From: an uncultured Bacteroidales bacterium
Lineage (GTDB): Bacteria; Bacteroidota; Bacteroidia; Bacteroidales; VadinHA17
Direction of reading: 5' to 3'
Assembly (NCBI GenBank): GCA_963772705.1
Contig: CAVYYH010000005.1
Location: 218,939 to 282,938 of the forward strand
Length of the DNA: 64,000 nt
The notes under the pieces are model-generated. The model did no database searches. It was not told the DNA's origin and saw only the letters and a list, made by a program, of their open reading frames with translations. Positions 1,684-64,000 of the stretch are shown here, piece after piece (position 1 is the stretch's first letter; each line of letters opens with the position of its first letter). The position numbers and the translations under genes were made by a program.

Positions 1684-1687
1684 CTTC

Positions 1688-2854
1688 TTAACCGTTTATT
1701 GCGCTCTCAATCTGTTTCAGTGCCTTATTAACAACCGACGCGGGGCATGCTACGTTCATCCTCATGAATCCTTCACCTCCGGGACCGAAGAGCGATCCCT
1801 CGTTCATCCCCACCCCTGCCTTCTCAATGAAGAACCTGTGGAGATCCTTCCCGCTCATTCCCATCTGCCGGCAGTCGAGCCATATCATGTAGGTAGCCTC
1901 AGGAGTGACCGGCTTAATCACCGGAACATGTTCACTGCAGTAAGTGACTACTCTGTCAACGTTGCCCTGGATATAGAGCAGCAGGTCATTGAGCCACTCA
2001 TGGCCGTGAGTATATGCAGCCTCCGATGCCACGTTGCCAAAGATGTTTCCCAGGTGAAGATGAAGCCCTTCAAGCACGTTCCTGTATTTCTCCCTCAGTG
2101 TGGCATCAGGTATTATCATTGATGACGTTGAGAGCCCGGCAAGGTTGAAGGTCTTGCTTGGTGCCATGCATGTCACGGTTATTGACGCTGCCTTCCCGGA
2201 CAGGGAGGCGACAGGTATGTGGCTGTTGCCGGGAAGGATAAGATCAGAATGTATTTCGTCAGAAAGGATTACTATTCCTTTTTCGTAACAGATATCAACC
2301 AGCCGTTCGAGCTCAGCTCTCCTCCATACCCGGCCAACCGGATTATGAGGATTGGAGATGATAATCATCCTGGTTGCCGGAGTGATCATTTTTTCAAGAC
2401 CATCGAAGTCCATCACCCATCCGTCGGGTGTCTCCAGCAGGTTGTTGTACAGCAGTCGTCTTCCATGATCCTTAACTGCGCCGTGAAAAGGGGTATATAC
2501 CGGTGGCTGGATGATTATTTCAGAGTCGTGGTCTGTGTATGCAAGCGTACATATATTGAGAGCAGGGACCACTCCCGGGCTGAATTCGATCCAGTCGCGC
2601 GTGAGAGCCCAGCCATGCCTCGCACCGATCCAATTAATCAGTGCATCAAAATAGGGTTCGGGCCTGAACGAGTACCCCAGTATCTCATGTTTCAGTCTTT
2701 CTGAAATTGCATCAATCACAAATGAGGGCGTCCTGAAGTCCATGTCTGCCACCCACATCGGTATCAGATCGGATCTTCCGAAGATCTTTTCTCTCCAGTC
2801 GTATTTAATGCTGTTGCTGTTTTCCCGGTTGATTTCCTCGTCAAAGTTCCACAT
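1688..2854 (-). CDS. PLP-dependent aminotransferase class I/II, MalY/PatB-type (cystathionine beta-lyase-like)
   Basis: 388 aa; PLP-lysine context 'APSKTFNLAGL'; 4 nt upstream of carA on the same strand. Confidence 0.8.
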   Translation of the reverse strand: MWNFDEEINRENSNSIKYDWREKIFGRSDLIPMWVADMDFRTPSFVIDAISERLKHEILGYSFRPEPYFDALINWIGARHGWALTRDWIEFSPGVVPALNICTLAYTDHDSEIIIQPPVYTPFHGAVKDHGRRLLYNNLLETPDGWVMDFDGLEKMITPATRMIIISNPHNPVGRVWRRAELERLVDICYEKGIVILSDEIHSDLILPGNSHIPVASLSGKAASITVTCMAPSKTFNLAGLSTSSMIIPDATLREKYRNVLEGLHLHLGNIFGNVASEAAYTHGHEWLNDLLLYIQGNVDRVVTYCSEHVPVIKPVTPEATYMIWLDCRQMGMSGKDLHRFFIEKAGVGMNEGSLFGPGGEGFMRMNVACPASVVNKALKQIESAING

Positions 2855-3045
2855 TCAGGGTCTGTCTGTTTGTCCGGGATGCAAATATATGGAAAATAGT
2901 ATGAACAACGCCGGACCCCTTGCTGTTTATCTTGAGTGGGTCAGATGGCATGTCTTTTTCCAAAATATATTCATCAAATATGTTAACTTGGAAAATTAAT
3001 TGTTTTAATTTTACAAATCTAAATAAAGGCACAAAAAGCAGATTT

Positions 3046-7826: not shown

Positions 7827-9098
7827 TCAGAATGAATAGCCTATTGCCTCCACAGGATTCATCTTTGAGGCTGTAGAAGCCGGGGCAAAGCCTGCAACTA
7901 TTCCAATTACCCCTGATATGGTTATCGCCAGGATAATGTTTCCCGCCGTTAGATACATCTCAAGGTTATAGAGATAATTGACAAAGAGGGTTGCAATGAA
8001 GATGATAATAAGTCCGACAATGCCACCGGTTATCGATAGCAGCACCGATTCAATCAGGAACTGAAGCAGGATAAACCTTCTCTTGGCCCCGAGTGCTTTC
8101 TGTATTCCTATTATGCTCGTTCTTTCCCTGACAGAAACAAACATGATGTTGGCGATGCCGAATCCTCCGACGAGGATTGAAAAGCCTCCGATGATCCACC
8201 CGGCAATATTTATTCCCGCAAAGACAGGTTCAAGGCTCTGTGTCACCTGGCTGGCCTGGTTGACCGAAAAGTTGCTTATCTCCCCCGGACTCAGCCTTCT
8301 TGCTGCCCGGAGGATCATGGTTACCTCATCCGAGAGCTGCAGAACCGATACTCCTTCTTTGCCTCTTATCATTATGTCAGAGTTGAGGTTTCGGTTCCGG
8401 AAGTTGACGAAGTTACTGATGAAGTTAAGCGGAACAACCATCAGTTCATCCATACCGCTGTCACTGAATCCCCCCTTGCCCTCCTTTTTGAAGGTGCCGA
8501 TGATCACTGCCCTGTACCCGCTTATCGTTATCTCCTTCCCCAGGGGCTCGGCCTTATCAAAGAGCCTCTGCGCAACTTCTGCACCGATGATCGCCACCGG
8601 TTTGCCGGCAGCAGACTCAGACAGCGTAAAGTAGCGCCCTTTATCCAGTTCAAACGATCTCACCTTGTCAAAGTCATGGGTCACACCCGAGATATATGTG
8701 TCATTCACTGAATTACTGCGGTACTTGACAGTACGCGGAGCAAAAACCGTAAAGCAAACCGCCTCGGTTGAAACAGACCTTCTCTGAATAGCCTCAAAAT
8801 CTTCGGGTGACGGAGCAGGCCATCTGATCATGTCCCACCACTTCATGTCAGGCGAAGGAGTCCAGGGCATCTTCTCAACATATATAGTATTATCTCCCAG
8901 TGATTCAATCCCCGTTCTGATCCCGTTTTCCATCCAGTCAAACACAGTGAAGACAGAAATTATGGAAACAATGCCGATAGTGATGCCAAAGAGCGACAGA
9001 AATGTCCGCAACTTATTGACTGACACTGAACTATAAGCAAACAGAAAACTCTCTTTCAACAATCTGATCCACATGCCAATGTAATTAATCAAGGCCAA
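7827..9098 (-). CDS. ABC transporter permease, FtsX/MacB-like
   Basis: 423 aa. N-terminal TM, large periplasmic domain, three C-terminal TMs with the FtsX-type 'IGIQKALGAKRRFIL' segment. Confidence 0.85.
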   Translation of the reverse strand: MALINYIGMWIRLLKESFLFAYSSVSVNKLRTFLSLFGITIGIVSIISVFTVFDWMENGIRTGIESLGDNTIYVEKMPWTPSPDMKWWDMIRWPAPSPEDFEAIQRRSVSTEAVCFTVFAPRTVKYRSNSVNDTYISGVTHDFDKVRSFELDKGRYFTLSESAAGKPVAIIGAEVAQRLFDKAEPLGKEITISGYRAVIIGTFKKEGKGGFSDSGMDELMVVPLNFISNFVNFRNRNLNSDIMIRGKEGVSVLQLSDEVTMILRAARRLSPGEISNFSVNQASQVTQSLEPVFAGINIAGWIIGGFSILVGGFGIANIMFVSVRERTSIIGIQKALGAKRRFILLQFLIESVLLSITGGIVGLIIIFIATLFVNYLYNLEMYLTAGNIILAITISGVIGIVAGFAPASTASKMNPVEAIGYSF

Positions 9099-9231
9099 AG
9101 GTAATCAAATAAGAAACATCATTAACTCACCGATAATTCACGAATTCAAATAATTAATATAACATTGCTTATCAAAAAAAATATCTATTTTTAACGGATT
9201 GCTTCTTCCGGGGTATCTGCAATCTAAGTCA

Positions 9232-10761
9232 ATGATAATGAGAGATATAAAAATAAAGAGTGCCTTTATTTCAGTCTATTATAAGGAGGGGCTGGAGCCA
9301 ATCGTTAAGAAGCTGAAGGCACTGGGTGTCAGCATTGTCTCGACAGGAGGATCATACGATTTTATTACCGGGGCAGGCGTTGAGGCTGTCAGGGTTGAGG
9401 ATATAACCACTTATCCCTCGATTCTGGGAGGCCGGGTCAAGACACTTCATCCCGGCATATTCGGAGGGATCCTTGCAAGAAGGGATAATGAGACAGATAT
9501 GAAGCAGGTTGCCGAATACAATATCCGGCTTTTTGATCTGGTTATTGTTGATCTGTACCCCTTTGAGGAGACAGTAGCTTCGGGAGCTGCTGATCAGGAA
9601 ATAATTGAAAAGATTGATATCGGCGGCGTTTCACTTATCAGGGCAGGGGCCAAGAATCATGCTGATGTGCTGATAGTCTCTTCCAGACTGCAGTATGAAC
9701 CCCTTATGCAGATACTGGACAGGAATGACGGAGTTGTCAGGGGAGAGGAACTGTACAGGTTTGCCGTTGAGGCCTTTGACCTCACCTCGCATTATGATAC
9801 GGCCATTTTCAGCTGGTTCAACCGAAATGATCAGGTCACTTCGTTCAAGAAGAGCATTCTGACGGGAGAGTCTTTGCGCTACGGAGAGAATCCGCATCAG
9901 AAGGGGATGTTTTTCGGTAACCTGAAGAACATCTTCGATCAGCTTCACGGTAAGGAAATATCCTATAATAACCTTCTCGATATTGACGCAGCAATAGCAC
10001 TTATCGATGAGTTTGATGAGACTACCTGCGCAATTCTGAAACACAACAATGCCTGCGGCATTGCATCACGCAGCACTGTCAGGGAATCGTGGGATGCTGC
10101 CCTGGCATGCGATCCGGTATCTGCCTATGGCGGGGTTGCTGTGACAAACAGGGAGATTGACACTGAGGCAGCGACAGAGATGGACAAGATCTTCCTCGAG
10201 GTTGTGATGGCACCCTCATATACAGAGAAGGCAGTTGAGATACTCAGGCAGAAAAAGAACAGGATAATACTTCTTCGCAAACAGTCAGAAGCTGACAGAG
10301 TGACGTTCAGGTCGATGCTGGGAGGAGTGCTGTGGCAGGAGCGCGACAGGGCCAATGAGTCGGCTGCCGATATGAAGCCTGTCACCGTCAGGCATCCCTC
10401 TGAAGATGAGTATCAGGATCTGGTGTTTGCCAACAGGATAGTGAAGCACAGCAGGTCAAACGCTATCGTCCTTGCCAGGGGAAAACAGCTTTGCGCAAGT
10501 GGTATAGGCCAGACATCAAGAATTGACGCCCTGCGTCAGGCAATAGAGAAGGCGCACAGCTTCGGATTGTCGATCGAGGGAGCAGTGATGGCCTCTGACG
10601 CTTTCTTTCCATTCCCTGATTCAGTCACAACGGCCCATGAGGCAGGTATCACTGCTGTGGTTCAGCCGGGAGGCTCTGTGCGCGACCAGGAATCTATAGA
10701 CTACTGCAATAAAAATAATGTTGCAATGGTTTTTACAGGTATAAGACATTTTAAACATTAA
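9232..10761 (+). CDS. purH: bifunctional AICAR transformylase / IMP cyclohydrolase
   Basis: MGS-like N-terminus 'ALISVYYKEGL'-type, 'ILKHNNACG', 'VVQPGGSVRD'. The first ATG in the ORF is at 9232. Confidence 0.93.
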   Translation: MIMRDIKIKSAFISVYYKEGLEPIVKKLKALGVSIVSTGGSYDFITGAGVEAVRVEDITTYPSILGGRVKTLHPGIFGGILARRDNETDMKQVAEYNIRLFDLVIVDLYPFEETVASGAADQEIIEKIDIGGVSLIRAGAKNHADVLIVSSRLQYEPLMQILDRNDGVVRGEELYRFAVEAFDLTSHYDTAIFSWFNRNDQVTSFKKSILTGESLRYGENPHQKGMFFGNLKNIFDQLHGKEISYNNLLDIDAAIALIDEFDETTCAILKHNNACGIASRSTVRESWDAALACDPVSAYGGVAVTNREIDTEAATEMDKIFLEVVMAPSYTEKAVEILRQKKNRIILLRKQSEADRVTFRSMLGGVLWQERDRANESAADMKPVTVRHPSEDEYQDLVFANRIVKHSRSNAIVLARGKQLCASGIGQTSRIDALRQAIEKAHSFGLSIEGAVMASDAFFPFPDSVTTAHEAGITAVVQPGGSVRDQESIDYCNKNNVAMVFTGIRHFKH

Positions 10762-13161: not shown

Positions 13162-14997
13162 ATGAAAGATCGTTTTGCAAACAGGAAGTATTTCATTATG
13201 GCTCTGGCAATAGCTGCGGCTGTGATCCTTATCCTGAGGCTCTTCTATATCCAGATCATTGACAAGACTTACCGCACCTCTGCCGCCAACAATGTTCTGA
13301 GGCACATTACCCAGTACCCGGCCCGTGGCCTGGTCTATGACCGCAACGGAGAGCTGATTGTCTATAATCAGGCAGCATATGACCTCCTGGTGGTCCCTGT
13401 TCAGACCAGTGCCTTTGATACTGCAAGATTCAATGAGATACTGGGTATCAGCATGAAGGACTTCCGTGACCGGATGAAGGCAGCTGTCTCATATTCGAGG
13501 CGCGCCCCGTCTGTATTTATGAAGATGATCTCTTCTGAAACCTATGGGTTTTTACAGGAGGAGCTCTACAAATTTCCCGGGTTTTATGTTCAGGCCAGGA
13601 CTCTCAGGAAATACACCAGGCCGGTCGGAGCACATCTGCTGGGGTATGTGGGTGAGGTGGATGATAAGCTTATAGGGCAGGATAAATATTACAGGTCAGG
13701 CGATTATATCGGGGTAAGCGGTATTGAGAAGTCTTACGAGGAGCACCTGCGAGGGAGAAAGGGGGTCAATATATTCCTTGTAGATGTACACAACAATATA
13801 AAAGGGTCCTATGCCGACGGCAGATTTGATACGACGTCTGTCCCGGGCACCAACCTTTGGTCAACCATTGACCTCAGTCTGCAGGAGTACGGTGAGAGGC
13901 TGATGCGCAACAAGACAGGTTCAATTGTGGCTATTGAACCCTCTACAGGGGAGATACTGGCTCTCGTCTCCTCTCCCTCATATGACCCCTCGCTGCTTGT
14001 AGGAAGGGTCAGATCATCGAATTTTACAAGGTTGCAGGCTGACACTGTCAAGCCGTTGTTTGACAGGGCACTCATGGCTTCATATCCGCCAGGGTCAACA
14101 TTCAAGATGATGAATGGCCTCATTGGCCTGGAAGAGGGGGTTATACGCCCGACCTCTCTCTTTGGGTGCAGCATGGGTTATCATGCCGGTTCGCTGACGG
14201 TAGGATGTCATTCGCACAGCTCTCCGCTTGATCTGCCTGGTGCAGTGATGAACTCATGCAACGCATGGTTCTGCAATGCTTTCAGGAGCATTCTTGAGAA
14301 CAAGGGATACAATTCCATCCAGGAGGCCTATGACAGGTGGAGAGAGTACCTGGTGGCCTTCGGTTTTGGTAACAAGCTGGGCATTGACCTTCCCAACGAG
14401 TTGTCAGGTTTTATTCCAACCAGGTCATATTACGACAGGTATTATGGCAAAGACAGGTGGAAGGCCCTGACAGTGATTTCGCTTGCCATCGGACAGGGAG
14501 AGATTGGCGCAACACCCCTGCAAATGGCCAATATGGCGACGGTAATAGCCAACAGAGGATCATTCTTTATACCTCACATTGTCAAAAAGATAGGTGAAGA
14601 CGGAGGTCCGTCATCTGTCTTTTCGCAGAAGTACACCACGGGCATCTCAGCTGAGAACTTTGAACCCATCATCGAGGGAATGGAAGGGGCTGTCAACGGC
14701 GGTCCAGGTGCCACCGCCCGCGGTGCCAGGCTCGACAGTATTATCATTTGCGGTAAGACCGGAACGGCACAGAACCCACACGGTAAGGACCATTCAATTT
14801 TCGTGGCCTTCGCCCCCAAGGACAATCCTCAGATCGCCATCGCGGTCTACGTAGAGAATGCAGGCTTCGGATCTACATTCGCAGCGCCTATTGCCAGTCT
14901 GATGATTGAGGAATATCTTACCGGCAAGATAAAGAGACAATACCTTGAAGATTACGTCCTGAAAGTAGTGATAGCCCCTGATGGAAAAGAACAGTAA
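13162..14997 (+). CDS. mrdA: penicillin-binding protein 2 (elongasome transpeptidase)
   Basis: SxxK 'STFK', SxN 'SCN', 'KTGTA'; N-terminal TM anchor. Confidence 0.9.
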   Translation: MKDRFANRKYFIMALAIAAAVILILRLFYIQIIDKTYRTSAANNVLRHITQYPARGLVYDRNGELIVYNQAAYDLLVVPVQTSAFDTARFNEILGISMKDFRDRMKAAVSYSRRAPSVFMKMISSETYGFLQEELYKFPGFYVQARTLRKYTRPVGAHLLGYVGEVDDKLIGQDKYYRSGDYIGVSGIEKSYEEHLRGRKGVNIFLVDVHNNIKGSYADGRFDTTSVPGTNLWSTIDLSLQEYGERLMRNKTGSIVAIEPSTGEILALVSSPSYDPSLLVGRVRSSNFTRLQADTVKPLFDRALMASYPPGSTFKMMNGLIGLEEGVIRPTSLFGCSMGYHAGSLTVGCHSHSSPLDLPGAVMNSCNAWFCNAFRSILENKGYNSIQEAYDRWREYLVAFGFGNKLGIDLPNELSGFIPTRSYYDRYYGKDRWKALTVISLAIGQGEIGATPLQMANMATVIANRGSFFIPHIVKKIGEDGGPSSVFSQKYTTGISAENFEPIIEGMEGAVNGGPGATARGARLDSIIICGKTGTAQNPHGKDHSIFVAFAPKDNPQIAIAVYVENAGFGSTFAAPIASLMIEEYLTGKIKRQYLEDYVLKVVIAPDGKEQ

Positions 14998-16396
14998 CAT
15001 ACTTAACAGGCTCGACTGGCTGACGGTACTCCTCTGGGGCACGATGATGATAATGGGGTGGCTTAACATTTATGCTGCCGTATACAATGAGGAGTATACA
15101 AGTATTTTTGACATGTCACAGCGTTACGGCAAACAGCTGTTATTTATTATTGCCGCTGTTATTCTTGCCATTTTTGTCCTGGTGACAGACAACAAACTGT
15201 ATTACTTCTTCGCATGGTTCATATACGGGATATTCGTTTTTCTCCTGCTGATGGTCCTTGTTGTCGGCAAGGAGATAAACGGTGCGAAAGCCTGGTTTGA
15301 GTTTGGCCCGTTCGGTATTCAGCCTTCCGAGTTTGCAAAATTTGCTACGGGCCTCGCACTTGCCTCATATCTCAATTCAAAGAGACAGGCGTTAGGATTC
15401 AGAACCATGGCAACGGCGACATCAATCATCATGGCCCCGGTCATACTCATTGCGGTTCAGCCTGATATGGGTTCGGTCATTACATATTTTGCGTTTTTCA
15501 TTGTGTTGTTCCGTGAGGGAATGAGCATCTATGTCTTTATCTCAGCATTGCTTGCCGTGATATTGTTTCTCCTTACCCTGATCTTCGGAACTGTCCCCGT
15601 GGCTCTCGGACTGATAATCCTGTCATTTGCTGCACTCTGGATCTTTATCCGTAATACACAGGTGCTGACAGCCCTGGGAATAATGGCGGGAGCGGGCGCC
15701 CTGAGCTACCTTGCAGGTCACTATATCTTCGGGGCAGGGCTCGATTTAATAATAGTATCATCAGTGGTGCTCTCCGGTGCGATATATGCATGGTATCTTT
15801 ACAGGTACAGGCTTAAGATGGCGGTAATAATATACAGCTTCCTCCTGGGAGGCATACTTTACCTCTTTACTGTTGACTACGCCTTTCATGAAATACTCAA
15901 GCCTCATCAGCAGACCAGGATAAACATTATGCTGGGGATGGAGGATGACCCTTACGGTACAGGATACAACCTCAATCAGTCACTCATATCCATCGGGTCG
16001 GGCGGATTTGCCGGCAAGGGCTACCTGAACGGAACGCAGACCAAGTTCAAGTTTGTCCCTGAACAGAGCACCGATTTCATCTTCTGCACGGTGGGAGAAG
16101 AATGGGGTTTCGTCGGGTCTGTGGTTGTCATAGGGCTGTTTGTATTGCTGCTGCTCAGGCTTGTGATGCTTGCCGAGAGGCAGCGGACAACATTTGTCCG
16201 CGCATATGGCTATGGTGTCTTCGGACTCTTCCTCGTCCACTTCTTCGTTAATATAGGAATGACGATAGGGGTTATGCCTGTCATCGGAATACCCCTTCCC
16301 TTCTTCAGCTACGGAGGGAGCTCCCTCTGGGGGTTCACCATATTGCTGTTTGTTTTTCTCAGGCTCGACGCAGGAAGAGCAGAGTACCTCGGATGA
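14981..16396 (+). CDS. rodA: SEDS-family peptidoglycan polymerase RodA
   Basis: Polytopic; 'PSEFAKF', 'ISIGSGGFAGKG', 'PEQSTDFIF'; 17-nt overlap with mrdA. Confidence 0.9.
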   Translation: MEKNSNILNRLDWLTVLLWGTMMIMGWLNIYAAVYNEEYTSIFDMSQRYGKQLLFIIAAVILAIFVLVTDNKLYYFFAWFIYGIFVFLLLMVLVVGKEINGAKAWFEFGPFGIQPSEFAKFATGLALASYLNSKRQALGFRTMATATSIIMAPVILIAVQPDMGSVITYFAFFIVLFREGMSIYVFISALLAVILFLLTLIFGTVPVALGLIILSFAALWIFIRNTQVLTALGIMAGAGALSYLAGHYIFGAGLDLIIVSSVVLSGAIYAWYLYRYRLKMAVIIYSFLLGGILYLFTVDYAFHEILKPHQQTRINIMLGMEDDPYGTGYNLNQSLISIGSGGFAGKGYLNGTQTKFKFVPEQSTDFIFCTVGEEWGFVGSVVVIGLFVLLLLRLVMLAERQRTTFVRAYGYGVFGLFLVHFFVNIGMTIGVMPVIGIPLPFFSYGGSSLWGFTILLFVFLRLDAGRAEYLG

Positions 16397-18617: not shown

Positions 18618-18670
18618 AGTCCTCAGTCAGCAGTCCTGTAAAAGGCTGAACAGACTGAGGACTTTTTTTT
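18618..18670 (+). terminator. rho-independent terminator
   Basis: 11-bp stem AGTCCTCAGTC / GACTGAGGACT followed by a T8 run. The 5' arm is itself heptamer-periodic. Confidence 0.8.
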
Positions 18671-18713
18671 ATTGCAGGATTGCTGCTGGCTGCTGACTAC
18701 CGGCAGGCTGCTG
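18618..18713. repeat. heptamer-periodic low-complexity block (AGTCCTC/AGTCAGC/AGTCCTG ... GCTGCTG-type)
   Basis: Read directly. Related to the GCAGTCCT units at 63525-63576. Confidence 0.5.
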
Positions 18714-20372: not shown

Positions 20373-20373
20373 T

Positions 20374-20429
20374 CTGCTCCTTGCTCACTGCTCCTCTGCT
20401 CCTCTGCTCCTCGCTCCTTGCTCCCTGCC
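20374..20429. repeat. tandem CTGCTCC/TTGCTCC heptamers filling the whole spacer between lysS and the downstream gene
   Basis: About 8 units read directly. This is the reverse complement of the GGAGCAG/GGAGCAA units at 27290-27338. Confidence 0.85.
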
Positions 20430-21950
20430 TAAAATTTGCCTGCTTCCGGCTTCATCTGCGGGAAGAAAAGTACATCCTGTATCGAGGGCTGGTTTGTCAT
20501 GAACATGGTCAGCCTGTCAATGCCTATCCCCATTCCTGAGGTGGGAGGCATACCATATTCGAGAGCCCTCACGAAATCCATATCGATAAACATAGCCTCA
20601 TCGTCTCCCTTCTCTGAGAGACGCAGCTGCTCCTGGAAGCGGTCGAGCTGATCAATCGGATCATTAAGTTCTGAGTATGCATTTGCCACCTCCTTGCCGT
20701 TCACCAGCAGCTCAAACCTCTCGGTGAGCCCTTCCTTGCTGCGGTGCTTCTTGGTAAGCGGTGATGTCTCCTGAGGGTAGTCAATGATAAACGTAGGTTG
20801 TATGAAGTGATGTTCACACTTCTCTCCGAAGATCAGATCAATCAGTTTTCCCTTGCCCATTGATGGCGAGTTGCCTATTTCAAGCCTGTCACACTCGCTG
20901 CGCAGCTCCTCCTCACTCATTCCGTTGATGTCAATGCCTGCATATTCCCTTATCGCATCAGTCATCGATACTCGTCTGTATGGACGCGCGTAATCGATAA
21001 CATGTTCTCCCAAAGGCACTTTGGTTGTGCCGTGAAGATCGGTTGCAACCTTCTCAAGAATCTGCTCGGTGAACTCCATCATCCAGTTGTAGTCTTTGTA
21101 GGCTACATAGATCTCCATCACTGTGAATTCCGGGTTATGGGTGCGGTCCATCCCCTCGTTCCGAAAATCCTTTGCGAACTCATATACACCGTCATAGCCT
21201 CCGACGATCAGCCTTTTCAGGTAGAGCTCATCTGCTATGCGAAGGTAGAGAGGCATGTCAAGTGCGTTATGATGAGTGATGAAAGGACGTGCAGCGGCTC
21301 CTCCCGGGATCGCCTGAAGCACCGGTGTCTCAACCTCAAGATATCCCCTGGCATCAAAGAGCTCACGCATCGACTTCATTATCTGCGTGCGCTTACGGAA
21401 GACCTCCCGCACCTCAGGATTGACTATAAGATCTACGTAGCGCTGGCGGTAACGCATCTCAGGGATCTGTCACAGCGTCATAAATGACACCGTCTTTTTC
21501 CTTGACGATCGGAAGTGGTCTCAGCGACTTGCTGAGCAGCGTCAGTTCGGTCACATGAAGGGTTATCTCTCCCATCTGTGTCCTGAAAACAAACCCCTTT
21601 ACGCCGATGATATCACCTATGTCAAGGAGTCTCTTGAAAAGTGTGTTATACTGTGTTTTATCCTCTCCGGGGCAGAGGTCGTCACGGCGTACATATATCT
21701 GTATCCGACCGGAAGAGTCCATCAGCTCGGCAAAAGAGGCGTTGCCCATTATACGGCGGCTCATGATGCGCCCTGCCAGGCAGACAGCCTGGTAGTTCTT
21801 CTTCTCATCGCTGAAGCCGGCAAGTATCTCTGCTGCCGAAGCATCTACCGGATACATGGCTGCCGGATATGGGTCTATGCCCAGCTTCCTTATCTCGTCA
21901 AGAGACTGCCTGCGTATCTGTTCCTGTTCGCTCAGGTGGTTGTTTGTCAT
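20429..21950 (-). pseudogene. lysS: lysyl-tRNA synthetase (class II), reading frame broken once (+1) at 21459-21464
   Basis: The N-terminal OB/anticodon-binding ORF (21459-21950) ends '...AVTDP*'. The catalytic ORF (20429-21457) starts '[11 protein letters not shown]'. Skipping one base in GAT CCC TGA GAT G restores '[11 protein letters not shown]'. Confidence 0.9.
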
Positions 21951-21986: not shown

Positions 21987-22094
21987 GGCAGCAGGCAATA
22001 GGTCAGGTGTCAGAAGACATAAGACGGAAGACCGGGGACTTGTAATCTGAAGGTGTACCCTTTGCCCCACGCTCTATGCCCCTTGCCCCCCTGC
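21987..22094. repeat. degenerate short-repeat block (GGCAGCAGGC, AGACGGA-type, CCCCTTGCCCC-type)
   Basis: Read directly. Shares the unit types GAAGACG and CCCTTGC with 27276-27540 and 63605-63673. Confidence 0.6.
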
Positions 22095-23907: not shown

Positions 23908-24816
23908 ATGCCGGGTAACAGGAGATTGCCATTATGGCTTAAGATGCAGAGGGCCAGCGGGGAGAATTACACCATGGTAAAGCGACTGGTGGAGGAGAAC
24001 CGCCTCCATACGATCTGCACCAGCGGTAACTGCCCTAACATAGGTGAGTGCTGGAATGCCGGCACTGCAACACTGATGATACTGGGAGACATATGCACCC
24101 GCTCATGTAAATTCTGCGGTACGGCAAGCGGTCACCCCCTGCCACCTGACCCCGATGAGCCTGAAAGGGTGGCGTCAGCGGTAAAAACAATGGGGCTGAA
24201 ACACTGTGTCATCACCTCGGTTGACCGTGATGACCTGCCTGACGGCGGGGCACATCACTGGGCTGAAACGATACACCGCATAAAGAAGGCTAACAATAAG
24301 GTTACAATTGAGACCCTGATACCTGATTTCAGGGGAGATTTTTCGGCCGTTGACCTTGTCATTGACGCCGGACCGGATGTCATCTCCCATAACATAGAAA
24401 CGGTGAAAAGACTCACTCCCCTGATAAGGTCCGTGGCTAAATATGATGTCAGCCTCAGTGTTCTGCGGCATATCTCTTCAAGAGGGATGGTCGCCAAGTC
24501 AGGGCTGATGCTTGGACTGGGGGAGACAAGGGAAGAGGTTATGGAGTCATTGCATGACCTTCATGCAGCCGGATGCAGCATTGTAACACTGGGGCAATAC
24601 CTTGCACCTTCACTTAATCATATGCCTGTGGTTGAGTATGTCACTCCGGAGGTGTTTGAAGAGTACAGGCTCAGGGCGCTGGAGACAGGTTTCAGGTTTG
24701 TCGAAAGCAGCCCCCTTGTCAGAAGCTCGTTTCATGCGGAGAAACATGTTGGCAGGGAGCATGGAGCATGGAGCATGGACAGGGGGTACATAACATGGAG
24801 AAGGCTTCAAATCTGA
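23908..24816 (+). CDS. lipA: lipoyl synthase
   Basis: 'CTSGNCPNIGEC' plus radical-SAM 'CTRSCKFC'. The C-terminus after 'SSFHAEKHV' is extended by about 20 codons that read through the (GGAGCAT)3 repeat. Confidence 0.92.
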   Translation: MPGNRRLPLWLKMQRASGENYTMVKRLVEENRLHTICTSGNCPNIGECWNAGTATLMILGDICTRSCKFCGTASGHPLPPDPDEPERVASAVKTMGLKHCVITSVDRDDLPDGGAHHWAETIHRIKKANNKVTIETLIPDFRGDFSAVDLVIDAGPDVISHNIETVKRLTPLIRSVAKYDVSLSVLRHISSRGMVAKSGLMLGLGETREEVMESLHDLHAAGCSIVTLGQYLAPSLNHMPVVEYVTPEVFEEYRLRALETGFRFVESSPLVRSSFHAEKHVGREHGAWSMDRGYITWRRLQI

Positions 24817-24864
24817 TGCCCCATGATCCAAGCCCCATGCCCCAAGCCCCAAGCCCCAAGCCCC
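24756..24864. repeat. (GGAGCAT)3 and (CCCCAWG)5 heptamer arrays spanning the lipA/lipB junction
   Basis: Read directly. Five C4 tracts with 3-nt loops lie at 24833-24864. Confidence 0.9.
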
Positions 24865-25553
24865 GCTCCACAGTTATATATGATGATTTAGGGTTCAAGG
24901 ACTATAAGGAGACCTGGGATTACCAGGAGCTATTTTTCAATGCAAAGGTGTCTGAGAAGCTCAGCAGGGACGGTGACGGAACAAGGACTCCTGACAGGCT
25001 GATCTTTGTTGAACATAACCATGTCTATACACTCGGTAAAAGCGGGTCAGAGCAGAACCTGCTCCTTGACTATATACAGCTCCAGGCACGTGATGCAGCG
25101 TTCTACCGTATTGACAGGGGAGGGGATATCACCTATCACGGCCCCGGACAGCTTGTAGGATATCCGATCTTTGATCTGGAAGGTATGGGGGTAGGACTCC
25201 GGGAATATATTAACCTCCTTGAAGAGTCGATTATCAGGTGTGTAAGTCACTTCGGCATCGCCGGAGGACGGCTTGGCGGAGCAACCGGTGTCTGGCTTGA
25301 CCCGGGAGTGCAGGGACGTGCAAGAAAAATATGTGCAATAGGCGTGAGAGCATCAAGGTACGTGACAATGCACGGTTTTGCTCTTAATGTCAGCACAGAC
25401 CTCTCTTATTTTGACCATATAAACCCCTGCGGCTATACTGACAAGGGTGTGACGAGTATCGTCAGGGAGACAGGAATGAAGGTCAGCATGAGTGATGTGA
25501 AGGATGTGATGCGTAAAAAGATGAGGGAGGTCTTCGGATATGAATATTATTAA
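24816..25553 (+). CDS. lipB: octanoyltransferase (lipoate-protein ligase B); start at 24816 or 24837
   Basis: 'RGGDITYHGPGQLVGYP', 'KICAIGV', 'NPCG'. The only in-frame ATG/GTG/TTG codons upstream of the conserved core lie inside the heptamer repeat. Confidence 0.88.
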   Translation: MPHDPSPMPQAPSPKPRSTVIYDDLGFKDYKETWDYQELFFNAKVSEKLSRDGDGTRTPDRLIFVEHNHVYTLGKSGSEQNLLLDYIQLQARDAAFYRIDRGGDITYHGPGQLVGYPIFDLEGMGVGLREYINLLEESIIRCVSHFGIAGGRLGGATGVWLDPGVQGRARKICAIGVRASRYVTMHGFALNVSTDLSYFDHINPCGYTDKGVTSIVRETGMKVSMSDVKDVMRKKMREVFGYEYY

Positions 25554-27274: not shown

Positions 27275-27275
27275 A

Positions 27276-27540
27276 GCAGGGGCAAGGGCAGGGAGCAGGG
27301 AGCAAGGAGCAGGGAGCAAGGAGCAGGGAGCAAGGAGGATTTGCGATTTGCGATTTGCGAATTGACCGCCGAAGCCGGTCCCTGAGCCGGTCCCTAAGCC
27401 GGACCCTGAGCCGGTCCCTGAGCCTGTCGAAGGGTGTCGAAGGGGTCGAAGGATCGCAGGGGGTGGCTGCGCTGCATAAGGCTCTGTGACTGAAGACGGA
27501 AGACGGAGGAAGAATACCGAATACCGATTACCGAATACCC
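27276..27540. repeat. mosaic of six different short tandem-repeat arrays
   Basis: Six arrays read directly: GGAGCAG/GGAGCAA (27276-27338), GATTTGC x3 (27339-27364), GCCGGTCCCTGA x4 (27374-27424), GTCGAAGG x3 (27426-27452), GAAGACG x3 (27492-27512), AATACCG x4 (27513-27540). Confidence 0.95.
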
Positions 27541-27657
27541 TCTTAATGGGTGGTGGAAAAAAACACATCTTCACTCTTTACCTCTTGATTTTTCCCCGCC
27601 CAACACTTGACTTTCATTCATCCCTGTCATAACTTTACTTTGTAATTATGTCCGGTA

Positions 27658-28473: not shown

Positions 28474-30416
28474 TACTCTGCTTCACCCTGATGCTGGTAT
28501 TTGCGGAGCATGATATTCTGTGCCAGGAAGAACTTGGTGCTGTGGTCGAGTCTGCTGGTGAGATAATGGCTCTGAGTGAGGATTACGAATCTGCCGTTGT
28601 CCTTGAAAAGCTGGCGGAACTGTCAGAAAGGCCTGTGCTCATCAACAGCGGTGACGAGAATGAGATTGCCCGCCTCTTCTTCCTGACGGAGTTTCAGGTC
28701 AGGGTGCTTATTGACCATACAAGGCGCAACGGGAGTGTTGCATCGATCTACGAGCTGGCACTCCTGCCTGCCTTTGACCGCAGTCTGGTCATGCTTATGG
28801 AACCATATATAAACCTTAGTCCTGCACCCGTCAATGACCAATACCATGCGGGGAAGACGACAATAACACTGACTGCCGCAACACGCACATCTGATCGGGA
28901 TGAAGATAATGCCGGTACAAGGACCCTGCTTCGTCTGAGGCATGAAGGCACTGCCTTAAGCTACGGGTTGACAGCGGAGAATGATCCGGGTGAGCCCATC
29001 ACTTTCCGCGGAGCATGGGGCGCTGATTTTCTTTCTGGCCATGTGATGTATAACAGAAGCGGACTGTTAAGACGTGTCATCATAGGTGATTATTCGCTCA
29101 GATTTGGTGAGGGACTGGTTTTCAATGCCGGTAACTGGCAGGGGGCCTGGCTCAGCGCTCCCTCATTCATGACGGGAAGGATGGCTGTAGCGCCCTATAC
29201 GTCGACTGAAGAAAACCGTTTCCTGCGCGGTGCAGCCTGTCTGTTCGGCAGCATGACAGCCGGAGCTGTCTTCTTCGGATCGGTAAACATGACAGACGCG
29301 AGGATCATACTTGACACTGACAGCAATGCAGTTGCCGTGAGCAACCTGGTTAATGGCGGCGTTCATGTCGGCAACTCATCGCTTGAGGCCCGCAACAGTC
29401 TGACAGAGAGCATCTTTGGTATGCATCTGACCCTTAGCGGGGAGAAGGTAAGAGGGGGAATAACCTCATCTGCCGCATGGTTCTCCCTGCCATTCAGACC
29501 TGACATGTCAAAGCCATGGAATATCAACTCTTTTGCCGGCAGCAGGCTCGTGAACCTCTCTTTCGATATCAAGGCCGGCACCGGTCCGCTGCTCTTCTTT
29601 GCTGAGGCGGCATGCAGCTACCCCGGGTCATGGGCTGCCATCGGCGGGTGGCGTGCCAAACCTTCTGGCAGGCTGACGCTGAATATGATGGCAAGACATT
29701 TCTCTGCCGGCTATCATTCCTTTCATTTCGGGGCTTTCAGGGCAGGCAGCGGATCATCAGGCGAGACAGGTATGGCTGCCTCACTCCACCTTGAAGCAGC
29801 CCGCCATCTCTTTGTTAGTGCCGGGGCAGACCATTACCGGATACCGGGGCCCCGTTACCGGTCTTCATCATCTTCATACGGAAACAGGATTGAGGTAAAA
29901 GGTGAATATCTTCCATCCGACGACCTCTCCTTCAGGCTGACATATACCTTTTTTTCAAGAGAATATGATCTGCCTGTAAATACAGGGGTGTCTGATTCGC
30001 AAGTCTCAGGCAGGAGGGGGATATCGATGATGTTTTCATTTGATCCAACAGACTGGATACATCTTGCCACCCGGGCCTCGGCATGCAGCACAGCTCCGTC
30101 AGGAGAGAATGGGTATATGCTATGTCAGGATCTGTCATTTACTCCGCGGGCGCTGCCGGTGACAGTCTGGCTCAGGTATGCCCTGTGCACCAGCGACGGT
30201 TACGACAGCCGCCTTTATGCCTGGGAGAATGATCTGCACTCTTACTTCAGCATCCCGGCACTCTACGGCGAATGCAGCCGGTCATACGTCATGGTCTCGT
30301 GGAAGCCTGTGGACGGGGTGGAGCTGAGGGGGAAGTATGTGATCACCACAACGGGTCCGGAATTTTCCGGCGCTGCGAAGCAGGAGTTCAGGATTCAGGG
30401 CAGGATTGTTTTTTAG
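28446..30416 (+). CDS. large outer-membrane protein with N-terminal ComEA-like helix-hairpin-helix module
   Basis: Signal peptide. 'INSGDENEIARLFFLTEFQVRVLIDHTRRNGSVASIYELALLPAF' follows the ComEA HhH pattern. About 520 aa are beta-rich and end in '...RIVF', an aromatic C-terminus. Confidence 0.55.
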   Translation: MDHRRERGLILCFTLMLVFAEHDILCQEELGAVVESAGEIMALSEDYESAVVLEKLAELSERPVLINSGDENEIARLFFLTEFQVRVLIDHTRRNGSVASIYELALLPAFDRSLVMLMEPYINLSPAPVNDQYHAGKTTITLTAATRTSDRDEDNAGTRTLLRLRHEGTALSYGLTAENDPGEPITFRGAWGADFLSGHVMYNRSGLLRRVIIGDYSLRFGEGLVFNAGNWQGAWLSAPSFMTGRMAVAPYTSTEENRFLRGAACLFGSMTAGAVFFGSVNMTDARIILDTDSNAVAVSNLVNGGVHVGNSSLEARNSLTESIFGMHLTLSGEKVRGGITSSAAWFSLPFRPDMSKPWNINSFAGSRLVNLSFDIKAGTGPLLFFAEAACSYPGSWAAIGGWRAKPSGRLTLNMMARHFSAGYHSFHFGAFRAGSGSSGETGMAASLHLEAARHLFVSAGADHYRIPGPRYRSSSSSYGNRIEVKGEYLPSDDLSFRLTYTFFSREYDLPVNTGVSDSQVSGRRGISMMFSFDPTDWIHLATRASACSTAPSGENGYMLCQDLSFTPRALPVTVWLRYALCTSDGYDSRLYAWENDLHSYFSIPALYGECSRSYVMVSWKPVDGVELRGKYVITTTGPEFSGAAKQEFRIQGRIVF

Positions 30417-30417
30417 C

Positions 30418-30427
30418 TAGGCAGGAG
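30418..30427. repeat. left arm of a perfect 10-bp inverted repeat (TAGGCAGGAG)
   Basis: Its reverse complement CTCCTGCCTA is at 30924-30933. Both arms are embedded in GCAGGAG/GCAGTAG-type short repeats. Confidence 0.7.
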
Positions 30428-30470
30428 CAAGAGGCAGCAGGCGAAGGGCTGATCATGTAATAACAATTGG

Positions 30471-30790
30471 ATGGACATGAACAGAATTCATTCGAAACTG
30501 TTAGAATCAAAAAGATGTATGGAATGGTTAAAGATGTATGAATATGCAAACGTGGAAAGACAGCATAGAGATCTGAGACGCTTTTGGCAGCTGATCCGGC
30601 CGATGAAAGAAGGTATTTCAAGTTTGCAGAGCAGCTGCGTACTACTGCAATGAGCATTACAAACAATATTGCAGAAGGCTACGGCCGTTTTCATACACGG
30701 AGTATATGCGAGGTTCCTCCAGTATAGCAGAAGGTCAGCTTTTAAATGTACCAATATACTGTGCCTCTATAATCGACCAGCGAGCTAATT
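30471..30790 (+). pseudogene. degraded four-helix-bundle protein gene (23S rRNA intervening-sequence protein family)
   Basis: Three frames together give 'SKRCMEWLKMYEYAN', then 'ERRYFKFAEQLRTTAMSITNNIAEGYGRFHT', then 'FLQYSRRSAFKCTNILCL'. The 'NIAEGxGR' core is diagnostic. There are at least 2 frame breaks and internal stops. Confidence 0.5.
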
Positions 30791-30923
30791 GATGATATAA
30801 CCTGACAGGATCATCTTACGAGACTTGCAATTGTGAAGAAGATGAGGAAAAATTAATGTCTAATAGCAGACTCTCTTAGGGTAGACAAAAGTGTAAATTA
30901 CCGCTACTGTCTTTACTTTTTGC

Positions 30924-30933
30924 CTCCTGCCTA
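30924..30933. repeat. right arm of the 10-bp inverted repeat (CTCCTGCCTA)
   Basis: See 30418-30427. Confidence 0.7.
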
Positions 30934-30944
30934 CTGCCTTGAGA

Positions 30945-62184: not shown

Positions 62185-62919
62185 TTACTCCCTTACCCTC
62201 CGGGGCTTGCGGAAGAGGCTGATGATCTTCATTCGCAGCACTCCCCAGAGTGCCTCATTGAAGATACCTCCTGTCATCTTCGACGTACCTTCTTTCCGGT
62301 CAGTGAAAATGATAGGAATCTCCACTATCCTGTAACCCAGGATCCAGGCAGTGAATTTCATTTCTATCTGAAATCCGTACCCTACCGATTTGATATGACC
62401 GGGGTTGATGCTTCTGAGTACCTCGCGGCGGTAGCATTTGAAGCCTGCCGTGGTATCCTTGATGTGCATACCGGTGATCACCCTTACATATATTGATGCG
62501 ATATACGACATCAGTACCCTTCCCAGCGGCCAGTTGACGACGTTGACACCAGAGATGTACCTTGACCCGATGGCAAGGTCAGCGCCGTCACGGTCACAGG
62601 CCTCAAAGAGCCTGACAAGGTCATCGGGGTTATGCGAGAAGTCAGCATCCATCTCGAAGATATACTTGTAGTCACGCTGCAGAGCCCAGTCGAAGCCTGC
62701 AATATAGGCCCTGCCAAGGCCCATCTTGCCGGGTCGTTCAACAAGGTGCAGGTTGGGGAAGGCAGGCATCATCTCCTTTACCAGTGTGCCGGTGCCGTCA
62801 GGTGAGTTGTCATCGATGACAAGTATGTCGAACGGAACGGGGAGGGAGGATATGGCTTTTACCAGCCGGGTGATATTCTCCTTCTCATTATATGTAGGTA
62901 TGATTACAAGGTTGGCCAT
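62185..62919 (-). CDS. GT2 polyprenol-phosphate mannosyltransferase (Dpm1/Ppm1-like)
   Basis: 'IIPTYNEKENI', 'VIDDNSPDGT', 'EMDADFSH'. Confidence 0.85.
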   Translation of the reverse strand: MANLVIIPTYNEKENITRLVKAISSLPVPFDILVIDDNSPDGTGTLVKEMMPAFPNLHLVERPGKMGLGRAYIAGFDWALQRDYKYIFEMDADFSHNPDDLVRLFEACDRDGADLAIGSRYISGVNVVNWPLGRVLMSYIASIYVRVITGMHIKDTTAGFKCYRREVLRSINPGHIKSVGYGFQIEMKFTAWILGYRIVEIPIIFTDRKEGTSKMTGGIFNEALWGVLRMKIISLFRKPRRVRE

Positions 62920-63223: not shown

Positions 63224-63298
63224 CCGGGATTTTCGATTGTCGATTGTCGAATTGCGATTTAAATCGCAAATTGCAAATTGCAAATCGCAAATTACATC
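63224..63298. repeat. inter-tRNA spacer built from TCGATTG and GCGATTT/AAATCGC heptamers with a central palindrome
   Basis: 'TCGATTGTCGATTGTCGAATTGCGATTT|AAATCGCAAATTGCAAATTGCAAATCGCAAATT' read directly. Confidence 0.85.
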
Positions 63299-63376: not shown

Positions 63377-63426
63377 CGCCCGCCATAGCTCCGAATTCAT
63401 AAGGAGCGACGGCGGGTTTTTCTTTT
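63377..63426 (+). terminator. rho-independent terminator after tRNA-Ala
   Basis: CCCGCC...GCTCC-loop-GGAGC...GGCGGG compound hairpin followed by TTTTTCTTTT. Confidence 0.7.
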
Positions 63427-63469
63427 ATAAGCAGAACTGGTTTGAATAGGTCGGGTGGGCTTTGGCGGG

Positions 63470-63673
63470 CAAATCGCAAATTGCAAATCGCAAATCGCAC
63501 ATTCTCCTTTATTCGCTCCGGAATGTCCTGCGGTCTTGCAGTCTTGCAGTCCTGCGGTCATGCAGTCCTGCGGTCCACACTACTGCCTACTGCCTACTGC
63601 CTTTCCCCATGCCCCTTGCTCCCTGCTCCTTGCTCCCTGCCCCTTGCCCCTTGCCCCTGCCCCCTGCCCCCGC
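63470..63673. repeat. second mosaic of short tandem-repeat arrays
   Basis: Four arrays: GCAAATC x4 (63470-63500), GTCCTGCG/GTCTTGCA 8-mers x6 (63525-63576), TACTGCC x3 (63581-63601), CCCTTGC/TCCCTGC-type block (63605-63673). Confidence 0.95.
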
Positions 63674-63751
63674 TTGACTTTAATTGATTAATAGCTTAAA
63701 TTTGATTGACATTCAGACAGTACGGGAAAATTCTTTAAATGAACATATACC

Positions 63752-64000
63752 ATGGCAAGCATTATCCCTGGTTACGAGTATGACATCTTCATAAGCTATC
63801 GTCAGAAAGACAACAAATATGACGGCTGGGTCACTGAGTTCGTCGATAATCTGAAAAGAGAACTAGACGCAACTTTCAAGGAAGATATCTCAATTTATTT
63901 TGATGAAAACCCTTCCGACGGGCTGCTTGAGATCCATAATGTGGATAAAAGCCTGGAGGCAAAGCTTAAATCACTGATTTTTATTCCGGTGATCTCTCAG
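63752..64000 (+). CDS. TIR-like domain protein, N-terminal 83 codons (3' end lies outside the window)
   Basis: Not in the ORF track because no stop is reached. ATG at 63752 gives 'MASIIPGYEYDIFISYRQKDNKYDGWVTEFVDNLKRELD...SLIFIPVISQ'. The 'YDIFISYRxxD' opening is typical of bacterial TIR domains. Confidence 0.65.
   Translation, partial: MASIIPGYEYDIFISYRQKDNKYDGWVTEFVDNLKRELDATFKEDISIYFDENPSDGLLEIHNVDKSLEAKLKSLIFIPVISQ

Follow-up and report, generated by a model that had tools for sequence, protein, structure and literature searches.

Hypervariable heptanucleotide arrays in fixed intergenic spacers of an uncultured Bacteroidales lineage

The locus considered here raises the question of what is to be made of intergenic spacers that are occupied by chains of short tandem repeats, and whether such chains amount to a dedicated device. 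They are found in a stretch of 64,000 nucleotides, referred to as the window and, in comparisons between strains, as W, from contig CAVYYH010000005.1 of the metagenome-assembled genome (MAG) of an uncultured Bacteroidales bacterium, and the chain that prompts the question, here called mosaic 2, is a contiguous series of short tandem arrays at 63469-63673. An earlier note on this DNA had claimed that modular units recur at several spacers in both orientations, and this was borne out by the sequence and by Tandem Repeats Finder (TRF), which was used alongside a periodicity scan of our own. The explanation favoured here, to which a probability of roughly 0.7 can be attached, is that the arrays are hypervariable intergenic heptameric simple sequence repeats (SSRs), of the class of the short tandemly repeated repetitive (STRR) sequences and other long SSRs, that they change by slippage and recombination, and that they are hairpin-capable repeats of transcribed spacers and mostly tolerated filler. 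The note had also envisaged a genome-wide system that generates arrays; the analysis covered about 100 kb of the species, nothing indicates such a system and there is no evidence of dedicated machinery.

Tandem arrays are present at seven to eight non-coding sites in the window, mainly with a period of 7 and in a few cases of 8, 10 or 12. The eight or more sites previously counted stand to that extent, but three of them are weak or degenerate (22011-22094, 30381-30447 and 30921-30939) and one stretch, 18618-18713, which had been taken for a repeat site whose units form part of a terminator stem, was rejected as an array, since it consists of an ordinary 11-bp hairpin (18621-18674) with T8 followed by a GCTGCTG-rich stretch for which TRF made no call. 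Strong arrays outside mosaic 2 lie at 20373-20428, at 24752-24784 together with 24816-24864, at 27275-27539 and at 63228-63293. TRF identified 13 non-overlapping period-7 arrays, and the periodicity scan gave 8 period-7 runs against 0.0 in shuffled sequence, an over-representation within the window far beyond chance; when periods from 4 to 15 were scanned, runs other than those at 7 appeared solely at 8, 12 and 14 (twice 7). The unit families GGAGCAR, GATTTGC, CCCCWWG and CTACTGC are seen repeatedly and in both orientations, and many families have a GCAR core in common: four GCAR at 7-nt spacing were matched 9 times in the window and not once in 100 dinucleotide shuffles. All the period-7 arrays lie outside open reading frames (ORFs) or at their edges, two of them intruding into the ends of lipA and lipB. 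A scan of the whole window with Rfam at gathering thresholds returned two tRNAs and nothing else, and a tandem-dimer and motif search of the window for the published units TAACTGA, STRR1-3, GGGAATC and GGGGAYT found none. A CRISPR array was also considered and rejected, the units being of 7-12 nt and contiguous without spacers, whereas in CRISPR arrays repeats of about 23-50 nt alternate with unique spacers of similar length.

Further evidence comes from comparison of strains. Public metagenomes contain many RecJ homologues of 78-99% identity, and these gave access to orthologous loci, of which L002, L205 and L208 belong to the same 90% RecJ cluster as W, L003 and L004 have 86-87% RecJ identity, L005 has 82% and L006 has 66%; for the region of mosaic 2, L209 and L210 have a neighbouring glycosyltransferase identical to that at 62185-62919, and in L213 and L216 it is 96-98% identical. 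Loci L002-L004, L205 and L208 carry 3-5 period-7 arrays per 10 kb, in spacers that match those of W, L006 carries two arrays and the 21.7 kb of L005 carry none. The position of the arrays is conserved among strains, and their copy number, their modules and sometimes the unit family itself are variable. Over 21 kb the identity of W and L002 is 95.9%, and every indel of at least 3 nt between them (lengths 47, 45, 24, 23, 29 and 10) falls in an array or an array spacer, as anticipated if arrays were slippage or indel hotspots. Downstream of recJ, four strains of the 90% cluster, which are 98-99% identical where a figure exists, have radically different module sets: GGAGCAR is present in 9, 1.5 or 4.5 copies, a GACCCTCA array and an array of the 8-mer GCAKGACY are each variably present, the segment 27275-27364 has a 47-nt deletion in L002 and differs by other module sets in L205 and L208, and the 12-mer AGCCGGTCCCTG, reiterated four to five times in two of the strains, has just one copy in L205 and in L208, so that this array either arose from, or collapsed to, a single-copy seed. 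In the spacer beside a tRNA synthetase gene the GGAGCAR-type units of W have AGGCAAT/AGGCAGT as their counterparts in L208 and L003, and in another spacer L208 has an expanded TCTTCCG array of more than 6 copies. Copy number, seeds and modules all change between strains whose flanking genes are 96-100% identical, and the suggestion that array composition at orthologous loci be compared thus has a clear answer, since it differs from strain to strain at the same spacers.

Arrays of this kind might in principle be spurious, and W and several of its relatives do look like long-read assemblies in which genes are frameshifted; in addition an 81-codon ORF runs across mosaic 2. The idea that the arrays are an artefact of assembly or sequencing, or else unrecognised coding repeats, is nevertheless effectively refuted. 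Arrays are carried by L208, L209 and L210, which are independent short-read assemblies from other samples, and L209 and L210 are identical from the tRNA pair through mosaic 2 though the samples differ, which indicates that the arrays are real and stable enough to be assembled reproducibly. Short Logan contigs break within the first GGAGCAR units, the 81-codon ORF has no Pfam match and the length differences between strains do not resemble whole codons.

Mosaic 2 itself, read on the forward strand, opens with a heptamer array of GCAAATC/GCAAATT (x4.4, 63469-63499), so that the four GCAAATC units described earlier are in fact three exact units and one variant within a genuine array. There follow a non-repeat linker of 25 nt (cattctcc...ggaat, 63500-63524) that is common to paralogous copies in L208 and L209, an 8-mer array of GTCCTGCG/GTCTTGCA (x6.5, 63525-63576), a CTACTGC heptamer array (x3.3, 63580-63602) and about 10 C-rich heptamer units (CCTTGCT, CCCTGCT, CCCCTTG and CCCCCTG, 63600-63670). 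Every one of these modules differs between W and L209/L210 while the adjacent protein is identical, the GCAAATC/GCAAATT module in copy number and variants and the C-rich module in having just two units or so despite a neighbouring gene that is 100% identical. The families of mosaic 2 are the reverse complements of those at 27275-27364 (+), where GGGCAAG/GGAGCAR units (x9) starting directly after the recJ stop codon are followed by GATTTGC (x3.9), and that segment is a paralogue of mosaic 2 in the opposite orientation.

The relationship extends beyond the units. When reverse-complemented, mosaic 2 can be aligned from one end to the other with the mosaic that follows recJ in L208 (alignment A1), where the 8-mer module is likewise found reverse-complemented, and the alignment takes in the non-array linkers ...GGCAGYAGTGTGGRCYGCAKGAC..., ...AAGGAGAWT..GATTTGCGATTTGCG... 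and CCGCCRAAGCC. The junction GGCAGTAGTGTGGACCGCAGGAC (minus strand, 63565-63587) occurs once only in the window, is present in L208 and has two copies each in L209 and L210; the second mosaic of L209, about 170 nt of which are near-identical to mosaic 2 (alignment A2), lies just downstream of a gene for a 733-aa TPR protein. Mosaic 2 is one copy of a dispersed composite element, linkers included, of which there are at least three paralogous copies in the species. The TPR gene has its 5' end at 63752, so that 63752-64000 is visible in the window, and is found complete at 752-2953 (minus strand) of L209; its N-terminus (DIFISYRQKD) looked TIR-like, but a TIR domain was rejected as Pfam gives TPR repeats only. 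In L213 and L216, which are without the TPR gene, one mosaic leads directly into the rRNA leader and the 16S rRNA gene, and it follows that the gene and its promoter (about 2.5 kb) form an indel between direct copies of the mosaic. This is the pattern expected of recombination between mosaics, and it agrees with the earlier idea of recombination hotspots in that direct copies bracket a 2.5-kb insertion missing from sister strains.

Dispersed copies with common linkers, at least three, in either orientation, within some 75 kb of one species, together with a 2.5-kb insertion flanked by direct copies, might also be produced if the mosaics were a small non-autonomous mobile element with internal arrays, transposing between spacers in the manner of a miniature inverted-repeat transposable element (MITE), a repetitive extragenic palindromic (REP) element or a bacterial interspersed mosaic element (BIME). 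We regard this as unlikely. Homologous recombination explains the flanking copies equally well, most arrays (those of the lipA/lipB junction, the tRNA synthetase spacer and the aminotransferase spacer) are not copies of the composite, and terminal inverted repeats, target-site duplications or a transposase were not noticed, no search having been aimed at them. When JGI metagenomes were scanned for exact matches to the junction motif, only the same strain and three chance matches in high-GC coding sequence were recovered, and so the linker motif was given no other context.

The arrays are placed in a regular way with respect to genes. Behind recJ, the tRNA synthetase gene and the aminotransferase gene they begin 0-4 nt past the stop codon, and they end at conserved promoter-like sequence (e.g. 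TTGACTTT...TAnnTTT), so that they take up the interval separating a stop codon or terminator from the promoter that follows. The two large mosaics terminate at a common CTTGACTTT motif (27603-27650 and 63672-63704) with TAnnTTT(G/A) some 20 nt on, an ending that is conserved in L002-L004 and that can be read as a putative promoter of the Bacteroidetes type. Adjoining the end of mosaic 2, at 63674-63704 (+) and upstream of the TPR gene starting at 63752, is the promoter-like TTGACT...TAAATTTG, listed by the scan as TTGACT-17-TAAATT; on our own reading of the letters it would also match the TAnnTTTG -7 motif of Bacteroidetes. Among spacers of at least 50 nt in the window, arrays occupy 7 of 13 that are not divergent and none of the 6 that are (hypergeometric p about 0.03).

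It is possible, if rather doubtful as an account of the arrays in general, that complementary pairs have been selected as functional RNA hairpins, acting in 3'-end formation, processing or termination, with the repeats merely building the stems; intrinsic terminators, RNase III sites, mRNA stabilisers and stems for tRNA-precursor processing would all come under this heading. The pairing of opposite-orientation arrays in cis, which the earlier note had raised, is plausible in that predicted folds have z-scores of -2 to -7. The best of them is downstream of recJ in L003, where inverted AGGCAAT/CCTACTG arrays are predicted to fold at -49 kcal/mol (z -7.2) and are followed by U7; the lipA/lipB junction gives -52 kcal/mol (z -3.1), mosaic 2 z -3.3, with GCAAAUC pairing to the 8-mers through a GCAA/UUGC core, the recJ mosaic z -2.5 and the arrays of the tRNA spacer -19.8 kcal/mol (z -2.0). 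There is also a precedent in a heptamer-SSR hairpin that is processed by RNase III (PMC12721329). However, many arrays have no partner, and the single array at 20373-20428 folds no better than its shuffles (z 0.04). The stems contain a mismatch or bulge per unit, and close strains show wholesale replacement of the arm sequences. The arrays do not in general appear to be canonical intrinsic terminators, since only L003 provides a good case and a T-run follows the inverted pair in only 3 of 34; a terminator-type hairpin with U-run is otherwise represented by the non-array hairpin at 18621-18674, and a simple terminator scanner found terminators not to be in excess.

A further point in favour of selected hairpins is the occurrence of small genes in the loop between inverted heptamer arrays. 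These are 23S_rRNA_IVP genes (PF05635, with a weak match to bAvd) in intergenic spacers, the namesakes of which reside within intervening sequences of 23S rRNA that are excised by RNase III. The clearest example is in L208, where an IVP gene at 13358-13720 (PF05635, E = 4e-38) has TAGGCAG x4.6 on one side and the perfectly reverse-complementary CTACTGC x3.3 on the other; L004 has two IVP genes between arrays (8888-9262 and 14745-15113), L205 has one at 8886-9263, and in L002 and L205 an IVP gene with other heptamer flanks stands in place of the lipA/lipB arrays of W. Complementary arms thus flank a PF05635 ORF in L208 and L004, as in the intervening-sequence cassette of 23S rRNA, but the present cassettes sit between protein-coding genes. 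The window copy (30480-30800) is a pseudogene with degenerate arms and a hidden Markov model remnant at 30569-30724, its flanks on the forward strand being a weak purine-rich array (CAGGAGTT, GGCAGGAGCAAGAGGCAGCAGG) at 30381-30447 and, inverted with respect to this, TGCCTAC x2.7 at 30921-30939. IVP genes as the cause of the arrays were considered and rejected, as arrays are absent at two other IVP loci and most arrays have no IVP gene nearby. Separately, in Faecalibacter rhinopitheci (L092, 4846-5560) an IVP gene is found between very long arrays of the same orientation, TCCCTAG x21.6 and TCCCTAA x16.6, which shows that the association of arrays with a small gene exists in a cultured species of Flavobacteriales as well.

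Two other functions have to be considered. G-quadruplex (G4) or i-motif elements, regulatory or promoting instability, would be in keeping with the G-richness of the sense strand downstream of genes, with the demonstration that GGGAATC and GGGGAYT repeats form G4 (Rehm 2015, PMC4692102) and with the fact that three of the five canonical G4 motifs in the window, against 1.1 expected, fall in arrays (27279-27300, 24840-24864 and, as a regular-expression match on the minus strand of the C-rich module of mosaic 2, 63647-63671). Those three arrays have a G tract of at least 3 per unit; the GATTTGC, GAATACC, CTACTGC and 8-mer families do not, and GATTTGC, GAATACC, GTCCTGCR, CTACTGC and GGAGCAR (with GG only) cannot form canonical G4s, which makes the proposal improbable as a general explanation. 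It is only a little easier to believe, and still quite unlikely, that the arrays are bound by a protein (of the cold-shock, S1-type or nucleoid kind) each subunit of which recognises about 7 nt, and which in this way tunes transcription or translation of the neighbouring gene. The array at 20373-20428 does end 3 nt before an ATG and that at 63600-63670 at a -33-like TTGAC, many units share the GCAR core, and comparable roles have been proposed in the literature, both for the TAACTGA repeats (PMC4679880) and for heptamers that precede recF and recO in Nostoc (bioRxiv 10.1101/2022.06.06.494920). On the other hand the units are very diverse and are exchanged at the same gene between close strains, which fits a sequence-specific binder poorly, the orthologous genes of L005 do without any array and no candidate protein came to light.

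Arrays of the same kind are widely distributed. A scan of GTDB for GGAGCAR x3 detected at least 120 species, the corresponding loci L085-L204 being analysed, and among the matches listed are Nostoc, Calothrix, Fischerella, Tolypothrix, Moorena and many heterocystous or filamentous cyanobacteria, as well as Pirellulales (Planctomycetes), Gemmatimonadales, Haliscomenobacter, Saprospiraceae, several Bacteroidales MAGs and Faecalibacter. With 456 TRF rows, period 7 predominated in the 120 loci, no other period exceeding 131, and it is typical to find several unit families side by side. Where arrays are adjacent, i.e. no more than 300 nt apart, and GGAGCAR-like units are excluded, 15 of 72 (21%) are reverse-complementary against 1.8% in the control, a 12-fold enrichment of inverted neighbours that would suit a selected hairpin. 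The G-rich member comes first in 23 complementary adjacent pairs and second in 2, and for all adjacent pairs of opposite skew the figures are 84 and 7. Arrays nearest to the 3' end of a gene are G-rich on the sense strand (88:30) and those nearest to a 5' end are C-rich (62:19; Fisher p = 1e-12, an approximate value as the loci are not all independent). In the W lineage the corresponding counts of G-rich and C-rich arrays, 8:5 downstream and 2:4 upstream of genes, do not differ significantly. GGAGCAR x3 also occurs in 78 IMG/VR contigs, the viral loci being likewise multi-family; control heptamers of the same composition gave 56, 25 and 14 loci, the two commonest heptamers of the whole comparison both containing GCAR, and as the controls too form arrays GGAGCAR is favoured and not unique.

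Taken as heptameric SSRs, the arrays would gain and lose units through slipped-strand mispairing or unequal exchange, and the mosaics would spread and swap modules by homologous recombination between copies. The arrays would be transcribed as 3' or intergenic RNA, and either selection or a hairpin-dependent mutational process might favour a G-rich array followed by its C-rich complement, such pairs giving long imperfect hairpins that are possible substrates for enzymes of the RNase III type. Rather than being a dedicated device, most of the array sequence is probably filler, tolerated in the non-essential part of co-directional spacers. A number of observations weigh against this explanation. 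The indel lengths are not all multiples of 7 and the unit family is swapped at the same spot (GGAGCAR as against AGGCAAT), for which simple slippage is insufficient in either case, although part of the variation in homopolymer length (C4 as against C5) could be long-read error. The G-first asymmetry and the enrichment of inverted pairs point beyond neutral slippage to selection or a structured mechanism, even if the dependence among GTDB loci makes their exact significance approximate. The absence of arrays from L005, at 82% RecJ identity, implies that some lineage factor is required. Finally, in Haemophilus influenzae the (ATCTTTC)n array of hmw forms a hairpin in the 5' untranslated region that is cleaved by RNase III, changes in heptamer copy number need transcription, hairpin folding and RNase III, and the authors consider their result to conflict with pure polymerase slippage (PMC12721329).

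A bolder proposal is that the mosaics are not simply passive SSRs and could be self-propagating modules, transcribed as a hairpin with a G-rich arm and then a C-rich arm, whose expansion is driven by processing of the RNase III type or by hairpin-templated synthesis and which serve as portable recombination sites for the gain and loss of small cassettes at intergenic hotspots. Such cassettes could be represented by the IVP genes, which are Avd-like, and by the 2.5-kb TPR gene beside the rRNA operon. We consider this a long shot; if true, it would explain why GGAGCAR units and a 12:1 G-first rule are shared by cyanobacteria, Planctomycetes and Bacteroidota.

Returning to the heptameric SSRs of the window, several sites show how closely they abut genes. 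An array of GGAGCAR-type 7- and 8-mers (x7.6, minus strand) at 20373-20428 fills the 56-nt spacer from the stop codon of an aminoacyl-tRNA synthetase gene to the next start, and this and the spacer between tRNA-Ile and tRNA-Ala substantiate the claim that arrays may fill entire spacers. The synthetase, of class II (Asn/Asp/Lys type; 20429-21950, minus strand), is in two frames owing to one extra A at about 21465; the same gene is intact (506 aa) in L002 and is broken at other positions in L004 and L205, and the split reflects either long-read error or pseudogenisation. Beyond it at 22011-22094 (minus strand) are weak degenerate arrays, on the sense strand of GGGGCAA-type and then TCTTCCG-type. 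At the lipA/lipB junction there are GGAGCAT x3-4 (24752-24784, +) and CCCCAWG x5-7 (24816-24864, +), arms whose complementarity is imperfect. In W the ORF of lipA is prolonged by 21 codons through the GGAGCAT array, and candidate start codons of lipB sit within the CCCCAWG array (region 24700-24940); in L208 lipA and lipB are joined through the arrays in a single ORF of 560 aa, and L003 has a natural short lipA-lipB fusion. The mosaic behind recJ continues at 27373-27539 (+) with the 12-mer AGCCGGTCCCTG x4.7, the 10-mer TGTCGAAGGG x2.9, GACGGAA x2.9 and GAATACC x4.

In the tRNA neighbourhood, inverted heptamer arrays at 63228-63293 (+), GATTGTC/GATTTTC and then AAATCGC/AAATTGC, fill the whole spacer between tRNA-Ile and tRNA-Ala, are predicted to form a hairpin and are kept, with variants, in L209, L213 and L216. 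After tRNA-Ala an ordinary terminator-like hairpin with a T-run (63377-63426, +), which is not part of an array, was recognised by direct reading and missed by the simple scanner. A 16S rRNA gene lies downstream of the tRNA pair and the mosaic in L213 (reverse complement of 1-960), L216 (reverse complement of 1-720) and L209 (1-560), corresponding to just past window position 64000, and the 'spacer' tRNAs are accordingly upstream of 16S and not in a 16S-23S spacer. L213 (reverse complement of 900-1430) has an insertion directly 3' of tRNA-Ala. The insertion ends with a partial copy of the tRNA 3' end, an arrangement suggestive of an attachment site at which an element has integrated.

Heptanucleotide arrays have been known since 1990 and are the commonest class of long SSR in bacteria, and it is of general interest why the period should be 7, why arrays exist in some lineages and not in close sisters, and why the G-rich array comes first. 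The present lineage is a natural experiment, having fixed spacers and many close strains in which births, expansions and swaps of arrays and recombination-mediated gain or loss of a gene are displayed, and comparison with an apparently array-free sister lineage could reveal a factor required for array formation and pit RNA hairpins and RNase III against polymerase slippage. On a practical level, arrays break short-read assemblies and cause spurious ORFs and gene fusions in annotation.

It remains to compare the arrays with known systems. The STRR sequences of Calothrix PCC 7601 were reportedly described by Mazel et al. in 1990 as heptamers in tandem that belong to several families and are dispersed through non-coding DNA. 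The cyanobacteria Nostoc, Calothrix, Fischerella, Tolypothrix and Moorena have GGAGCAR arrays like those of W, but there are no tandem dimers of CCCCAGT, TTGGTCA or CAACAGT in W, which is a member of the Bacteroidales and not a heterocystous cyanobacterium. BIME and REP elements are dispersed, modular, intergenic composites, the REP units of Escherichia coli being palindromes of about 35 nt. Like these and MITEs, the mosaics occur in both orientations and often downstream of genes, with multiple dispersed copies that have non-repeat sequence in common; unlike REP units they are made of tandem heptamers.

The closest parallel is with the heptamer SSRs for which, as cited in later work (PMC4679880, PMC4692102), Mrazek (2007) proposed polymerase slippage, heptanucleotides being the most abundant class among long SSRs of 5-11 nt, and with the intergenic GGGAATC repeats of Xanthomonas and GGGGAYT repeats of Nostoc studied by Rehm (2015; PMC4692102), who found the same strand rule as in the GTDB loci, inverted pairs and conserved positions with variation in length and sequence between relatives. 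In both cases, as in W, tandem 7-nt units in three or more copies, far over chance, occupy non-coding spacers. The Rehm repeats too are kept between the same genes whilst length and sequence vary among close relatives, and occasionally form inverted pairs. In the strand rule, which holds for them and for the GTDB loci, it is the coding strand that is G-rich in repeats following an ORF and the non-coding strand in repeats preceding one. W, whose host is an uncultured member of the Bacteroidales, differs in having neither GGGAATC nor GGGGAYT, in concatenating many families together with 8-, 10- and 12-mers into mosaics, and in that the mosaics of its lineage are paralogous as wholes and bracket a gene insertion. 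TAACTGA repeats, reported by MacGregor (2015) from Beggiatoaceae, cyanobacteria and five Bacteroidetes, in which Gramella and Aequorivita have other heptamers in the same spacers and close relatives are without them (PMC4679880), resemble the arrays of W in being intergenic direct heptamers, some directly before start codons, with a patchy distribution across phyla including Bacteroidetes; in the W lineage, however, arrays mostly start at stop codons, and TAACTGA x2 is absent. Regulatory effects have also been suggested for heptamers in Nostoc (bioRxiv 10.1101/2022.06.06.494920). In the hmw system of H. influenzae the heptamer array is one arm of a long RNA hairpin with a purine-rich complementary arm, but that is a single phase-variable locus of a pathogen with the pyrimidine arm first, as against the many loci of W with the G-rich arm first. 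The arrays of W show the period, the spacer position and the variation between relatives of intergenic heptanucleotide SSRs, and their kind is already known from cyanobacteria, Xanthomonas, Beggiatoaceae and a few Bacteroidetes.

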